A DNA stretch of 41,783 bases from Betaproteobacteria bacterium. GTDB taxonomy: Bacteria; Pseudomonadota; Gammaproteobacteria; Burkholderiales; SG8-41. The stretch lies in assembly GCA_016183675.1 (NCBI GenBank), contig JACPEF010000099.1, forward strand, positions 1 through 41,783, read 5' to 3'. A model generated the notes under the pieces. It had not been told where the DNA came from and searched no databases. It saw nothing but the letters and a program-made list of their open reading frames with translations. Shown here in pieces: positions 3,139 to 41,783 of this stretch. Positions within the stretch are counted from its first letter, which is position 1, and each line of letters starts with the position of its first letter. A program made the position numbers and the translations under genes.

Positions 3139-3275
3139 GAACCGTCCATTTCCGCTACTCTCATCTTACAAGAGCCTCCCCCATAGCGGTTCTTCCATCC
3201 CGTGAAGGAACGTGGTGAGCGCAATCGGCGCGAAGCCGCTTCGTTGAACAACGCTCGCAACGGTCATGCCGACGA

Positions 3276-3908
3276 TCAACCAGCTTCGCCGAACAGGGCC
3301 GGCGACCAATTCACTACCTTGCGTCGCAATGAATCAACTTCCACCGGCGTAAGCCTGCTGCGCGCTGATTCCAGGATCCGCCGCGCTTCCGCCTGGACGT
3401 TTTCATCGAGGCCGTACGATCTGACAGCAAGTAACGCCCAGAAGAACGCCGCATCGAATCCGCTCGGCGGAGTCGATTCGTCCGCGTAAATCCGCGCCAG
3501 CGCGAGCTGCACCCGCGCATGGCCCTGCTCTGCCGCGCGCTCATACCAGTCGGCCGCACTCTCGGGATCACGCTCAGTGCCAATGCCGTCCTCGTTCATC
3601 CGGCCAAGCTCGAACTGGGACTCGGCATAGCCGAGCTTGTAACGATTCCGGTAAAGAACACTCTCGCCCGCCATCTCGAACATGGCATGCGCCTGCGCCG
3701 AATCGCGCTGGACATGACGTCCCTCCAGGTACATCGAGCCGAGCTCATGAGCAGCCTTTAGATTACCGTGCAGTACCTGGCGTGTGAGCGCGGCGACGAT
3801 TTCCGTCGATTCCTCCAGCTCCAGCGCAGCCTGCACGCGATTGTCCATGTCATCGGCGAGCGCATCAACTCCACCGAGCAGCAAAATGAATGTCAATAAA
3901 CGTTTCAT
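3276..3908 (-). CDS. Exported Sel1-repeat protein
   Basis: Signal-peptide-like N-terminus; repeats SQFELGRMNEDGIGTERD..AADWYERAAEQGH. Confidence 0.8.
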   Translation of the reverse strand: MKRLLTFILLLGGVDALADDMDNRVQAALELEESTEIVAALTRQVLHGNLKAAHELGSMYLEGRHVQRDSAQAHAMFEMAGESVLYRNRYKLGYAESQFELGRMNEDGIGTERDPESAADWYERAAEQGHARVQLALARIYADESTPPSGFDAAFFWALLAVRSYGLDENVQAEARRILESARSRLTPVEVDSLRRKVVNWSPALFGEAG

Positions 3909-5332: not shown

Positions 5333-7553
5333 ATGCGGATTTCCCTGCGCTTCATTCTCCCTCTCGCGGTGGCCCTCACGGCCATTGCGTACGCGGTCGT
5401 GCCGCTCGTGGACCGGCTCACCCTGAACTGGTTCGTGCGCGACCTGGAAATGCGCGCCAAGCTGATCACCAGCGCGACGCAGGAGCCGCTCGGCGCCCTC
5501 GTGCGCGAGCCGCGCGCGAAGCAGAAGATCATGCGGTTTTTCGAGCGCCTCGTTCAGGACGAGCGCGTCTACGCGCTCGGTTTCTGCGACCACGCGGGCA
5601 AGCTCGCCTACGCCACGCGGGGGTTCCCTGAAACGGTGCGATGCCCGGCCCCAGACGCGCCCGGGCAAACCGAGTTGCTGCAGCGTCCCGATGGCCCGCT
5701 GCACGTATCGGCCCATCCGGTAGCGCTCGAGGGCGAGACGCTCGGCGAGCTGGTGATCGTGCACGACATGAGCTTCGTGCAGCGGCGCAGCGAGGACACG
5801 AAGAAGTATGTGTTTTACCTGTTCGCGACGATCGCGGCCGTGGTCGCGCTGATCACCGTGGTGATCGCCGAGATCAGCTGGCGCGGCTGGGTGGCCGGCA
5901 TCAAGGCGTTGATATCGGGCGAAGGGCTGCTGCGCTCGTCGGGGGAGGTGCGCGCACCCGAATTGCGGCCGATCGCGAAGGACCTGCAGGCGCTCGTGCG
6001 CGACCTGGAGGCCGAGCGGCGCAGCCGCGACGAAAGCCAGGTCGTCTGGGGCCCGGAAGCGCTGCGCCGGATCCTGCGGGAAGACCTGAAGGGCGATGAG
6101 GTGTTGATCGTGTCCAACCGCGAGCCGTACATCCACGTCCGCAAGCAGAACGTGATCGAGATCCAGCGCCCGGCGAGCGGGCTTGTGACCGCCCTCGAGC
6201 CGGTCATGCGCGCGTGCTCGGGGACGTGGATCGCGCACGGCAGCGGCTCCGCAGACCGCGAGGCGGTGGATCCGGGCGACCACGTAATGGTGCCGCCGGA
6301 GCGGCCCGCATACCGCATTCGGCGCGTCTGGCTCACCAAGGAGGAGGAGCAGGGCTACTACTACGGATTCGCCAACGAGGGCTTGTGGCCGTTGTGCCAC
6401 ATCGCGCATGTGCGGCCGGTCTTCCGGGCCCCGGACTGGGAGCATTACCGTGCGGTGAACCGGCGCTTCGCCGACGTGGTCGTGGACGAGGCGCGCACCG
6501 AGGACCCGATCGTGCTGGTGCAGGACTACCACCTCGCCCTGCTCGGAGGGATGCTCGATGATCGCCGGCCCGACGTGCGCGCCGTGTTCTTCCAACACAC
6601 CCCGTTCTGCGGCCCGAACTCGATTCGCGGAGGCCGTGCTCGAAGGGCTGCTCGGCTCGAGCATCCTGGGTTTTCACACGCAGTTCCACTGCAACAACTT
6701 CTTCGACACTGTGGACCGGTTCCTCGAGGCGCGCGTCAACCGCGAGACTTTCACGATCTCCTACAGCGGCGAGCCGACGGAGGTGCAGCGCTACCCGATT
6801 TCGATCGAATGGCCGCCGGAGGCCCTGGGCGGGGAACCCCCGGTGGAGGAATGTCGCAGCCAGATCCGCGCGCGCCTCGGCGTTTCGCCGGAACTGCGCC
6901 TGGGCATCGGCGTGGACCGCCTCGACTACACCAAGGGAATCCTCGAGCGTTTCATGGCGGTCGAGCGCCTGCTCGAGCTCGAGCCGCACTGGATCGGGAA
7001 GTTCTCTTTCGTGCAGATCGCGGCGCCCTCACGCTCATCCATAGACGAGTATCAGGGTTTCGAGGTCAAAGTGAGGGCGCTGGCGACGCAGATCAACCGC
7101 CGCTTCGGGCGTGAGGGATACGAGCCCATCATCCTCATTGTCGAGCACCACGACGCGAAGGAGGTCTACGCCTACTACCGCGCCGCCGACCTGTGCTACG
7201 TGTCGAGCCTGCACGACGGCATGAACCTGGTGGCGAAGGAATTCGTCGCGGCGCGCGAGGACGAGCGCGGAGTGCTCGTCCTGTCGCAGTTCACCGGCGC
7301 CGCACGCGAGCTGACCGAAGCGCTGATCGTCAACCCCTACGACATCGAGCAGTGCGCGGCGGCGTTGAACCTGGCGCTCACCATGCCGCCCGAAGAGCAG
7401 CGCGCCCGCATGCGCAGCATGAGAAATCTCGTGCAGGAGTTCAACGTGTACCGCTGGGCGGGGCGCATGCTGATCGATGCGGCGCGCATGCGCCACCGGC
7501 ACCGCGTGCTCGCGCGGGCCCGCGTCGCGCGGCTGCGCACTGTTCCTCGCTAG
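5333..7553 (+). CDS. otsA: Trehalose-6-phosphate synthase with an N-terminal two-TM extension; frameshifted near 6629 as given
   Basis: First frame: [31 protein letters not shown]. Second frame: [40 protein letters not shown] before ATG 5333. Confidence 0.85.
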
Positions 7554-14099: not shown

Positions 14100-14742
14100 A
14101 ACCGCCAAGACGCCAAGAGAAGCGAAAATGAAAAGCGAAAATGAAAAGCGAAAACACGACGGACACCAGAATTCATCTCAAGAATCCCCTCGCCCAGAAT
14201 TCATCTCAAGAATCCCCCCGCCCCCTCTTTAGGGGGAGAGGGAGAGTTTTTGAGCCCGCCATTATTGATCGTTGCGGAAATGGTTGACACACCATTTCCG
14301 CACTGGACATTTCCCCTCGCCCTCTGGGAGAGGGGGAAGGGGCGAGGGTCGAGCGGCGTAAAGCATTTACGCAAAGCTCGATAGTTGTTATGTCTTGTCC
14401 TTCCTTGGCGTCTTGGCGCCTTGGCGGTTCAGTCGTTGATCTTATCGGCGTCCATCCCGTTCCAATGTCCGTTTTCCAAGCGCGTCGCGAACCATCAATC
14501 ATAAGGCGCTGCCGGAGGTCATTGGAACGGGATCCATCGGCGGCTCAAAGGTTTTCCTTCGTGTCCTTTGTGTCCTTTGTGGTTCGGCTTTTTTGTTCCT
14601 TGGCGGCCTTGGCGGCGAAAATTAAGGGATGAGGGAGGAGGGTTGAGGGATGAGGAATCAGTTTTCGTTTTCATCCGCGTTTATCTGCGTTTATCTGCGG
14701 TTCCACTTGATCTTCTTGGCGGCCTTGGCGTCTTGGCGGCTA
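14100..14742. repeat. Intergenic mosaic of short-repeat families
   Basis: CGCCAAGA/G 9-mers at 14100, 14404, 14599 and 14715; AAGCGAAAATGAA 13-mers; a 24-nt duplication at 14166/14194; CCCTC..GAGGG hairpins at 14211-14348; CTTYGTGTC 9-mers near 14556; TTTATCTGCG 10-mers near 14680. Confidence 0.8.
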
Positions 14743-39758: not shown

Positions 39759-40304
39759 ATGGCTCGTGTTCCCCTCCTCGACGAGCACGCCAGCCCCGAC
39801 GTCGCCGCGCTCATCGCGAAGATCCGCGACGCGCGCGGGGGCCGGCTGCTCAACCTTTACCGCCTGCTGCTGCATAACCCGGCGGTGGCGGCCGCCTGGC
39901 TGGAGTTCAACAACGCGGTCCGCTACCAGACGGAGCTCGACGAGAGCGCACGGGAGCTTGCCATCCTGCGCGTCGCGATCCTGAACGGCGCCGACTATAT
40001 CCTGCGAATTCACGGCTCGCGCTACGCCGGAAAGGCGGGGCTCACGCAGGAACAGCTCGCGGCGCTTCCCGCCTGGCGCGACTCCGCGCTGTTCAGCCGG
40101 AGCGAGCGCGCGCTGCTCGCCTACGTGGATGCGATGACCCGCGACGTGGAAGTGCCGGATGACGTATTCAATGGCTTGCGGGGGCATTTCAGCGAACGCC
40201 AGGTGGTGGAGCTCACGGTGCTGATCGGCGCCTACAATATGCACACCCGCGTGCTGAAGGCGCTCAGGGTCGACCCCGAGCCGGCATCCGGCGAGAACAA
40301 CTGA
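39759..40304 (+). CDS. Carboxymuconolactone decarboxylase/AhpD-like protein
   Basis: LNLYRLLLHNP, RELAILRVA..NGADY...H, VELTVLIGAYNM. Confidence 0.85.
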   Translation: MARVPLLDEHASPDVAALIAKIRDARGGRLLNLYRLLLHNPAVAAAWLEFNNAVRYQTELDESARELAILRVAILNGADYILRIHGSRYAGKAGLTQEQLAALPAWRDSALFSRSERALLAYVDAMTRDVEVPDDVFNGLRGHFSERQVVELTVLIGAYNMHTRVLKALRVDPEPASGENN

Positions 40305-40470
40305 ACCGCCAAGATGGCATGGACGCCTCCCGCCCCCTTCGGGGGAGGCGAGCATGCCATCTTAATTAGGACAGGGAGGGTTGGCCAAGATGGAGCGGGG
40401 CTCTCACAATCCTGACGGCATCGTGTGCCACGGTGATTGTTCCAATCACGAACGGAAAGGAGAGCCCCAC

Positions 40471-41499
40471 ATGGATCGTACGCTATATGCACTGGATCTG
40501 GCAAAGCAGGTGTTTCAGGTGTTCTGGGTAGAGGAGCGCAGCCGCACGCGCGAGAAGCGGCTCAAGCGCGCGCAGGTGCTGGAGTTCTTTGGTGGGCTCG
40601 CGCCGGCGCGGGTGGCGATGGAGGCCTGTGGGAGCGCCCACTACTGGGGGCGCGAGCTCATGAAGCTCGGCCACGAGGTGATGCTCATCCACCCGCGCTA
40701 TGTGCGGGCCTTTGTGAAGACGAACAAGACCGACTGCGCCGATGCGCGGGCGATTTGGAGCGCGGCGCAACAGCCCGAGATGAGAGCGGTGCCGGTGAAG
40801 ACGGTGGAGAGCCAAACGATCCTCGCGCTGCACCGGGTGCGCGCGGGGCGGCGCGATATGCGCACGGCGCTGATGAACCAGTTGCGCGGGCTGCTCGCCG
40901 AGTTTGGGGTGGTGCTCAAGCGCGGGCGCGCAGCGGGGCTGGCGGAACTCTATCGCCGCTCCTCCGAGCTCGAGGCGAAGCTGCCCGGGACGATGATGAG
41001 CCTGCTGCGCGAGCAGTGCGAGGCGATCGCGCGGCTGGAGCGCGACGTGCGCGCGCTGGAAGGCCGCATCCGGGCTGCCCACGCGGGCGATGAGCGCTTC
41101 GCGAGCCTCACCGGCATCCCCGGCATCGGGCTGCTGGGGGCGAGTGCGCTGCTGGCCCGGGTCGACAACGGGCAGCAGTTTCGCTCGGGGCGCCAGGCGA
41201 GTGCGTTCGTCGGGATCGTGCCGCGCCAGCACGGCACCGGGGGAAGCGTGCGCCTGGGGGCGATCAGCAAGCGCGGCGATCCCTATCTGCGCACCCTCCT
41301 CATCCACGGGGCGCGCTCGGTGATCGCCAGATCCAAGCACCCCTCGCCGTGGTTGCAGGGGCTCATCGCGCGCCGCGGCAAGAACGTGGCGGCGGTGGCG
41401 CTCGCCAACAAGAACGTGCGGATTGCCTGGGCGCTGCTCAGGCGCGGCGGGCGCTATGAGCCGGATCATCAGGCCCGGGTGCTGGCAGTGCAGCATTGA
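40471..41499 (+). CDS. IS110-family DEDD recombinase/transposase
   Basis: ALDLAK, MEACG, KTDCADA (DEDD); GIPGIG, GIVPRQHGTGG, ISKRGDPYLRTLL, VALANK. AAGGAG RBS before ATG 40471. Confidence 0.96.
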   Translation: MDRTLYALDLAKQVFQVFWVEERSRTREKRLKRAQVLEFFGGLAPARVAMEACGSAHYWGRELMKLGHEVMLIHPRYVRAFVKTNKTDCADARAIWSAAQQPEMRAVPVKTVESQTILALHRVRAGRRDMRTALMNQLRGLLAEFGVVLKRGRAAGLAELYRRSSELEAKLPGTMMSLLREQCEAIARLERDVRALEGRIRAAHAGDERFASLTGIPGIGLLGASALLARVDNGQQFRSGRQASAFVGIVPRQHGTGGSVRLGAISKRGDPYLRTLLIHGARSVIARSKHPSPWLQGLIARRGKNVAAVALANKNVRIAWALLRRGGRYEPDHQARVLAVQH

Positions 41500-41559
41500 T
41501 GGCTGAGAGACGGAAAGGAGACCCTTCACGGGCTGGCGCAGGTTGATTGACGAGGTGAT

Positions 41560-41716
41560 GGCAGGACTGGTCGGACCGCGGGGAAGTGAAACCTGCTTGG
41601 CGTCGAGTGCCACGAGCACGTTGTCCAAGATGAGAGCTTCCCCGGCGAATTCCATCATGTGCCCGCAGGCTTATACACTGAGCCTGCACCACGAGGCCGG
41701 ATATAAGACTGCAGCC
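41560..41716 (+). ncRNA. Putative bridge/seek RNA (ends approximate)
   Basis: Two stem-separated guide pairs: target-matching CTTGGCGTC and CCAAGA; donor-matching AATTCCATC and ATATAAGA. Confidence 0.75.
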
Positions 41717-41747
41717 CTTACCACTCTGTCACCATCGAGAAAATCAC

Positions 41748-41775
41748 TTGCCAAGCGGGGGGCGTCCATATAAGA
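41748..41775 (+). promoter_or_regulatory. -35 half of the circle-junction promoter
   Basis: TTGCCA-17 nt-TAAGA(C) in the inserted form; becomes TAAGAT when joined to the left end. Confidence 0.65.
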
Positions 41776-41783
41776 CGCCAAGA

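Follow-up and report, generated by a model that had tools for sequence, protein, structure and literature searches.

The window analysed here, a stretch of 41,783 nucleotides from a Betaproteobacteria bacterium, is a complete contig (C189) of the host assembly G000 (3.0 Mb, 287 contigs, 65% G+C), and its final 1.47 kb are occupied by an insertion sequence (IS) assigned to the IS1111 group of the IS110 family (40314..41774, + strand; 1461 bp, including one copy of an AG core at the right end). The element reads as an intact member of that group, and the comparisons reported below make it very probable that an RNA encoded 3' of the gene (41555-41718) guides its recombinase, that this RNA specifies the target CCAAGACGCCAAG, that its donor segments match the joined IS ends, and that exchange takes place at AG.

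The transposase gene (40471..41499, + strand) encodes 342 aa and carries both domains expected of the family, PF01548 (E 8e-9; the N-terminal, RuvC-like DEDD domain) and PF02371 (E 5e-20; C-terminal). The DEDD residues D9, E51, D88, and D91 fall within the motifs LDLAK, MEACG, and KTDCADA, and GIVPRQHGTGG, beginning at residue 248, corresponds to the G..P....(S/T)G motif in the TG variant (T256-G257) described for IS1111 transposases (PMC11187229). The NCBIfam model NF033542, "IS110 family RNA-guided transposase", is matched with 302.5 bits against a cut-off of 140, and the solved structural relatives are ISCro4 (PDB 9t56) and IS621 (PDB 8wt6, E 8e-11). The best NCBI-named protein relatives are 51-53% identical, and a search for near relatives across 40 relatives and genome contigs returned none above 51% identity. 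Close relatives of the transposase were found in metagenomes only, namely seven homologues from metagenome contigs (76-90% aa identity; five with both flanks) and 22 metagenomic protein clusters at ≥67% identity, while many distant homologues (34-55% identity) come from genomes and metagenomes.

The ends of the element were set by comparing junctions in the window, five metagenome loci, and two genomes of the genus. At the left junction, where GAACCGCCAAGA meets TGGCATGG (in longer form, GAACCGCCAAG and ATGGCATGGACGCC, the A of ATGG being 40314), the element is preceded by the left target half CCAAG (40309..40313), whose AG (40312-40313) is the left copy of the proposed core; the same CCAAG flank precedes a second copy in G000 (contig C45) and lies at 16 further left junctions of the subfamily. 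At the right junction, CCATATAAGA meets CGCCAAGA at the very end of the window (longer form, GGCGTCCATATAAG and ACGCCAAGA), with the last base of ATATAAG at 41774 and the last base of the contig at 41783; this final segment (41773..41783, + strand) comprises the right copy of the core (AG, 41773-41774), the right target half ACGCCAAG, and one extra flank base (A, 41783). A search for inverted repeats between the ends identified subterminal repeats of 9 bp, ATGGACGCC on the left (40319..40327) and GGCGTCCAT on the right (41761..41769), each with an extension of 5 nt (ATGGC at 40314-40318 on the left; on the right, counted with the AG core), and this arrangement recurs in 49 homologous loci. The non-coding DNA downstream of the gene measures 275 nt (41500-41774), as against 157 nt upstream (40314-40470), and the 9-base subterminal inverted repeats and this long 3' region are both marks of the IS1111 group. 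Insertion is site-specific: 18 left and 11 right junctions lie at the identical position of a host repeat, and there is no target duplication beyond the common core.

The predicted downstream RNA and its target segments

A first-pass annotation, made from the sequence of the window without database searches, had proposed an intact IS110-family element of the IS1111 type with an RNA encoded 3' of the transposase gene, an assignment now backed by the domains, by NF033542, and by a covariance model of the homologues of the kind that the annotation had suggested as a check. This model (R1), built from 19 sequences, predicts a bridge or long seek RNA of 164 nt at 41555..41718 (+ strand; 132.3 bits, E 2e-37) and, among 99 sources, locates the RNA downstream of the transposase at 79 sites, with guides that covary. 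In the resulting alignment (A4), 94.9% of the cells of the family structure pair, compared with 70.9% in shuffles and at most 47.4% in partner-slid controls, and 26 of its 31 base pairs vary on both sides; the sequences are related and the alignment was fitted to the model, so that these figures and the permutation figures below are generous and overstate independence, yet the pairing signal is large despite this. Folding by itself is not decisive, a single-sequence fold of 41500-41775 being no better than shuffles (z -0.74) and that of 41560-41720 modestly better (z -2.31), and the comparison of homologues was used instead. Among the homologues, the region 3' of the gene is better conserved than the protein, and its variation clusters in both arms of the first loop.

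The predicted fold begins with stem P1, whose 5' strand TGATGG (41556..41561, partner 41652-41657) repeats the letters (G)ATGG of the left-end extension; P1 shows compensatory changes at two pairs (3-143 and 8-139), G-C becoming C-G five times and A-U nine times. A small hairpin (41569-41577) is followed by P2 (41579..41586 with 41637-41644), the stem closing the target-binding loop, in which eight of eight pairs covary family-wide, and by P3, the distal hairpin of that loop (41607..41619; 41607-41609 with 41617-41619). Farther downstream, P4 (41659..41698; 41659-41663 with 41695-41698) lies between the donor segments and encloses hairpin P5 (41665-41669 with 41683-41687), and the 3' tail behind them is single-stranded in the family fold. 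A candidate 3-bp stem that would close the donor loop (A4 columns 126-128/214-216) pairs in 91.4% of cells versus 89.2% in shuffles, which is too weak to claim. The first-pass annotation had read much of this from the single sequence, and all four of its guide segments, both of its hairpins, and its closing stem lie where it had placed them: CTTGGCGTC at 41596-41604, CCAAGA at 41625-41630, AATTCCATC at 41648-41656, and ATATAAGA at 41701-41708; GTGC/GCAC at 41607-41610/41616-41619 and GCAGGCT/AGCCTGC at 41665-41671/41681-41687; and GGGGAAG/CTTCCCC at 41580-41586/41637-41643. The rejoined flanks and the joined ends likewise read as it had given them.

The left target guide, CTTGGCGTC (41596..41604, + strand), lies in the 5' arm of the target loop and matches the right junction in nine of nine positions, where it would pair with the + strand sequence GACGCCAAG, that is, the core G and the right flank. 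The right target guide, CCAAG (41625..41629, + strand), lies in the 3' arm, has the letters of the + strand left flank including the core AG, and would pair with the - strand; behind it stands a family-conserved AT (41630..41631), equal to the first two left-end bases and occupying the position of the IS621 handshake guide. The order of the two guides, the complement of the + strand standing 5' of the complement of the - strand, agrees with the rule given for IS1111 elements, in which the top-strand match comes before (5' of) the bottom-strand one (PMC11187229), provided that "top" is taken as the transposase-sense strand.

The main support comes from homologues in which the flanks differ. In three loci (L059, L061, and L062, the last two being one element at two different sites), the 5' arm carries a T>C change (CTCGGCGTC for CTTGGCGTC) and the 3' arm an A>G change (CCGAG for CCAAG), and their flanks change as well, to CCGCCGAG on the left (CCGAG) and ACGCCGAG on the right. 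This is the opposite of guides that stay constant where flanks differ, the outcome that the first-pass annotation had named as telling against itself. In L058, three changes in the 5' arm accompany a 9-nt exact match to that element's own, different right flank, and L063 tolerates one G-U in the target pairing. Across the family, 49 loci with both junctions yielded 47 distinct sets of RNA and junctions, in which columns 99-105 of the alignment equal left-flank positions -12 to -7 (30-42 matches of 46-47 versus 0.24-0.37 expected as a fraction; z 6.5-9.4) and columns 52-60 are complementary to right-flank positions +11 to +4 (z 3.3-6.1). With four of the 47 sets left out for short flanks, exact 5'-arm runs of at least 7 were found in 29 of 43 own rejoined targets and in 38 of 1788 foreign RNA/target pairs, and exact 3'-arm runs of at least 6 in 28 of 43 own and 48 of 1788 foreign pairs. 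Columns 107-108, the conserved AT, match left-end positions -5 and -4 in 37 and 42 of the 47 sets. These comparisons support the two target segments as real guides that vary together with the flanks, and they likewise support the 13-mer CCAAGACGCCAAG, the 13-nt target of the first-pass annotation, as the sequence recognised.

Additional RNA copies were noted at two loci. The distant homologue locus L038 holds two identical RNA copies (2607-2762 and 3255-3410) 648 bases apart; they may reflect an element in tandem or partly duplicated, or else a stand-alone RNA module as reported for ISPpu9. In L068, a weaker second match to the RNA model (29-188, 53 bits) lies directly upstream of that element's left end, and a family member seems to have inserted there beside the remnants of another.

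Donor segments, core, and rival explanations

A second pair of segments flanks P4/P5 and resembles the joined IS ends. The right donor guide, ATATAAG (41701..41707, + strand), has the letters of the right end (41768-41774) including the core AG, and the AC behind it (41708..41709) equals the first two flank bases past the core, again in a handshake-like position; the window has two copies of ATATAAGA where 0.04 would be expected, one within the RNA and the other at the right end. The first base of the guide (column 207) follows right-end position +1 in 47 of 47 sets and its fourth (column 210) follows +4 in 43 of 46 (z 7.8 each), and the variants ATGTACG, ATCTA.G, ATATACG, ATATATG, and ATATAAG are each accompanied by a matching right end. 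Just behind, column 212 matches position +6 in 22 of 46 sets versus an expected fraction of 0.27 (3 of 2000 permutations as high), and column 213 is not significant. The candidate left donor guide, AATTCCATC (41648..41656, + strand), matches the complement of the left end in seven of nine positions, and its bases 41652-41656 also belong to the 3' strand of P1. Such a match is not significant alone (about 0.4 expected per 275-nt region by our own rough estimate), so that support for this fourth segment has to come from the homologues. There, column 135, which lies just outside P1, complements left-end position -1 in 36 of 47 sets (0 of 2000 permutations as high); columns 139-141 complement -2 to -4, positions at which few sets are variable (39-46 of 47 carry the commonest letter); and three loci with altered left ends (L073, L042, and L049) have corresponding RNA bases. 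At family level, then, the register in which the first-pass annotation had set this segment is right. Reading of the donor ends by the segments at 41648-41656 and 41701-41707 is, on these comparisons, likely but not settled, the right segment appearing well supported and the left one less clear.

Besides the relatedness of the sequences noted above, several observations weigh against RNA guidance as outlined here. The contig stops nine bases past the element, its own right flank being unassembled beyond that point, none of the listed sequencing runs is recorded as RNA, and Rfam has no family matching the predicted RNA, a search of 40200-41783 at E values up to 1 having returned no matches (the family being either absent from the release or not reaching this clade). 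The target being a direct repeat, the two target guides are mutually complementary (CTTGG/CCAAG); RNAalifold pairs them with each other in the close homologues, and the T>C/A>G changes taken alone also fit a helix within the RNA. Pairing with DNA is favoured over such a helix because both flanks change simultaneously with the guides. The register of the 5' arm shifts by one column among family members, and in this element the arm ends at the first core base, the next base (G, 41605) being unpaired with the second. It could further be supposed that no guide exists and that a copy of a common host repeat merely happens to lie in the non-coding end: G000 has 1855 occurrences of the heptamer CGCCAAG where about 669 are expected, and the window has eight of CTTGGCGTC where 0.67 are expected, although the latter count proves little by itself because six of the eight are other copies of the host repeat. 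Against accident stand the placement of the segments in loop arms, stems that covary over 79 homologues with quite different targets, and homologue arms that match their own flanks, with both segments changing together with the flanks in the three loci described above; we consider it extremely improbable. A more serious alternative, somewhat unlikely in our judgement, holds that the target loop alone guides, as a short seekRNA, that the protein reads the IS ends through the subterminal repeats, and that the supposed donor guides are P1 scaffold and an echo of the right end. The short seekRNA of ISEc11 (82 nt, lacking the distal part) was sufficient for transposition, so that the donor half is perhaps dispensable, and the role of the long form is left open in the same source (PMC11187229). 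The left donor segment has two mismatches in this element and forms part of P1, where 90.7% of cells pair its CCATCA with the 5' TGATGG and the two pairs given above change in a compensatory way, and column 144 fails to track the base that is otherwise common to the junctions (21 of 47). The tracking of left-end -1 by a column outside P1, the altered left ends with matching RNA changes, and a right segment that follows two variable right-end positions all speak for donor reading, as do the loops complementary to both target and donor reported in three IS1111 examples by Durrant et al. (PMC11208160). The donor segments of the first-pass annotation are supported, more weakly than the target segments, in that both covary with the IS ends family-wide; the left one also sits in P1 and has two mismatches.

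The position of the core is weighed on similar data. Family-wide, one base, x, is common to both junctions and both 3' arms, and 41 of 47 target arms and all 47 donor arms have G as the RNA base after x, in agreement with the right junction (40/46) and not with the left (18/47). In this element, AG/CT is common to both junctions, both 3' arms include AG, and each 5' arm reaches the first core base only. The first-pass annotation had instead proposed a TC core (GA on the + strand), unlike IS621, on which all four guides would end. That all four segments end on TC/GA is literally true of this element: the target arms overlap exactly on GA, as do the donor arms (5'-arm run [+1,+9], 3'-arm run [-3,+2]). 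In the joined ends, moreover, the 10 bp that separate the subterminal repeats would be symmetric around GA, and insertion points other than CT have been reported for IS1111 members (PMC13604230). The homologues argue otherwise, the family data indicating that CCAAGA and ATATAAGA each end in an A that does not pair with the core. Among the 11 assembled right junctions of the subfamily, AAG is followed by A in seven and by G in four (L058, L063, and two in G021), and all 18 left junctions read AG followed by ATGGCATGG, so that the second base of the annotated core follows the flank at right junctions and the element at left ones. The A in question is kept in 36 of 47 family RNAs regardless of the flank and equals the invariant first base of the left end; a GA core would require a mismatched core always to be resolved one way, to which our own rough estimate gives a few per cent, and handshake-like covariation begins immediately after x-G, at column 212. 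In IS621, the handshake guides sit directly after the core-pairing bases (PMC11208158), and it is this shared layout that places the core at x-G, here AG; ISPpu9, too, recombines at an AG dinucleotide, in repetitive extragenic palindromic (REP) sequences (PMC12288879). A GA core is therefore judged unlikely, and the core is probably AG on the + strand (40312-40313 and 41773-41774), equivalent to CT on the other strand as in IS621, which is the simplest reading of the junctions.

With AG as the core, the proposed mechanism would run as follows. The RNA would be produced from 41555-41718, 3' of the gene, and bound by the DEDD/Thr-Gly recombinase. In the target loop closed by P2, the 5' arm CTTGGCGTC would bind the right target half on its + strand, and the 3' arm CCAAG the left target half on its - strand, the two arms together specifying CCAAGACGCCAAG; the second pair of segments, flanking P4/P5, would recognise the joined ends (..CCATC on the left, ATATAAG on the right). 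Cleavage and exchange would fall at the AG (+) or CT (-) that donor and target have in common, and the two bases after each 3' arm (AT and AC), which match the partner DNA, may act like the handshake guides of IS621. Since the target is one unit of an abundant intergenic host repeat, the element would find more than a hundred safe landing sites.

One extension of this scheme is a donor-gated switch, which we regard as speculative and improbable. The left guide (..CCATCA) would be held in P1 by the 5' copy of the left end (TGATGG, compared with GATGG in the end itself); capture of the left end would displace this decoy and convert the fold to a two-loop form, with the 3-bp stem closing the donor loop; and the difference between donor (xA) and target and guides (xG) in most members would create a TAxAAT -10 box in the circle only. 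P1, the left donor guide, and the left end do co-vary three ways. Only two points, both unproven, go beyond the published picture, namely a possible masking of the left donor guide by P1 and the disparity between donor and target in the second core base.

With regard to that second core position, A follows x at 29 of 47 left junctions, and G follows it at 39 of 46 right junctions and in both RNA arms. Where A follows x at the left junction, the joined ends form TAxAAT; the subfamily of the window has G at both junctions. A candidate -35 box, TTGCCA (41748..41753, + strand), gains its partner only when the ends are joined, and in-silico joining gives TTGCCA-17-TAAGAT (9/12). Family-wide, a right-end -35 with TAxAAT across the joint scores at least 10/12 in 16 of 42 joined forms versus 1 of 42 integrated forms; in the integrated element, the promoter scan found no sigma-70-like site in the right end, where spacing is 15-17 and the -10 box poor. 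The joined ends may create a junction promoter, which would be consistent with the Pjunc promoters of ISEc11 and IS621 (PMC12288879).

Host repeat, mobility, and place among known systems

The 13-mer CCAAGACGCCAAG is present in 131 non-overlapping copies (139 with overlap) in the 3.0-Mb G000, against 0.12 expected by composition, and three unoccupied copies lie within the window (14105..14117 on the + strand; 14404-14416 and 14724-14736 on the - strand). The repeat is intergenic and built of CGCCAAG units, typically ..TTAGCC/TGAACC-GCCAAG-N-CGCCAAG-NN-CGCCAAG-AAA. It often stands beside other short repeat families (..GCAGATAAACGC.. and ..CACAGAGAAC..).

G000 contains at least two left-junction and at least two right-junction contigs, and in two additional genomes of the genus it is present at several sites. 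Four DNA runs from one groundwater study contain at least 85% of the sampled words, and in one of them (X2) a contig agrees with the window over 40100-40314 and then passes into the right target half, followed by sequence that does not resemble the element; this contig is the empty-site form of the same locus. Further contigs of these runs show other flanks. The empty site, the varied flanks, and the multiple sites together indicate that the element is polymorphic in the population and recently mobile. The joined-ends (circle) form was not seen among the contigs of the groundwater runs, which cannot show its absence, and the right flank of the X2 empty site was sought in the G000 assembly and not found. 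BLAST of the left-flank gene against relatives in the genus aligned the coding part only, at no more than 76-77% identity, and stopped short of the target, and one such relative (L009) has just an uninterrupted copy of the repeat elsewhere.

Several partial forms of the left end were also observed. Across the left junction lies a near-palindrome (40311..40363), in which a G+C-rich hairpin separates AAGATGGCATG from its reverse complement CATGCCATCTT; it consists of three flank bases and the first 50 bases of the element, is kept in close homologues, and repeats in its inner copy the left junction, including the core, on the opposite strand. In G021, palindromic mini-elements of about 55 bp (L134:1504-1570 and L135:1504-1570) are made up of the left end and an inverted copy of it, and have the left target half, inverted, at either border, while in G042 (L131:1501-1540) and in contigs of run X1 the left end is cut after about 38 bases; these are possibly non-autonomous derivatives or by-products of recombination. 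On G000 contig C192 (- strand, ~6976-7000), a repeat unit reads CCAAG-ATGGCATGGA-CGCCAAG; 19 of its bases are the same as at the element's left junction, but no element lies behind them, and the unit may be the scar of an excision, an isolated left end, or a repeat variant ancestral to the left end. Finally, G000 contig C45 ends at window position 40427, and contigs of runs X1, X3, and X4 contain the first ~120 bases of the element and diverge after 40434 into unrelated sequence, which suggests a truncated or rearranged copy.

Among characterised systems, the closest in kind are the IS1111 elements ISEc11, ISPa11, ISKpn4, and ISPst6, for which seekRNAs have been described (PMC11187229). They have in common with the present element a DEDD transposase of ~340 aa bearing the G..P....(S/T)G motif, subterminal inverted repeats, extensive non-coding DNA 3' of the gene, an RNA whose top-strand match stands 5' of its bottom-strand match with overlap at the insertion point, and natural retargeting among relatives (PMC11187229); the predicted 164 nt, moreover, lie within the 148-172 nt of the long seekRNA form (PMC13604230). 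The present element differs from these named ones in its target and guides, and its transposase is distant from named relatives (51-53% identity to the best NCBI-named proteins). The distal half of its RNA covaries with the IS ends, whereas PMC11187229 does not settle what the long form does. IS621 resembles the element in possessing two guide pairs that each read both strands (the donor pair being a likely one here), a 9-nt left target guide, a core within the pairings (in this element, the 5' arms reach its first base only) that is CT in IS621 and probably here, handshake-like bases, a repeat as target, and a related recombinase (PMC11208160; PMC11208158). Unlike in IS621, the RNA is encoded at the right end and not the left, the subterminal repeats are long, the catalytic motif is Thr-Gly rather than Ser-Gly, the left donor segment is paired in P1 rather than free in an internal loop, and the closing stem of the donor loop is the weakly supported one of 3 bp. 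IS621 in REP sequences and ISPpu9 at an AG in REP sequences (PMC12288879) share with it the choice of a fixed position in an abundant intergenic repeat, although the repeat here consists of direct CGCCAAG units, unlike the palindromic REP sequences of E. coli and Pseudomonas.

The element is thus a further member of a class described in 2024, as the first-pass annotation had recognised in calling the class described, and not a new kind of system; the known picture of that class is unchanged by it. RNA-guided recombinases of the IS110/IS1111 type are under development as programmable tools for DNA insertion, and to these the element adds a natural system in which a 13-bp target, the guides, and the ends are directly readable from the sequence, and whose close relatives have been retargeted through matched single-base changes in both guides (CCAAG to CCGAG). 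For the IS1111-type clade, the 79-member alignment provides a column-wise record of the covariation of the RNA with target and IS ends, which could help to decide if donor reading is a function of the long seekRNA's distal half.

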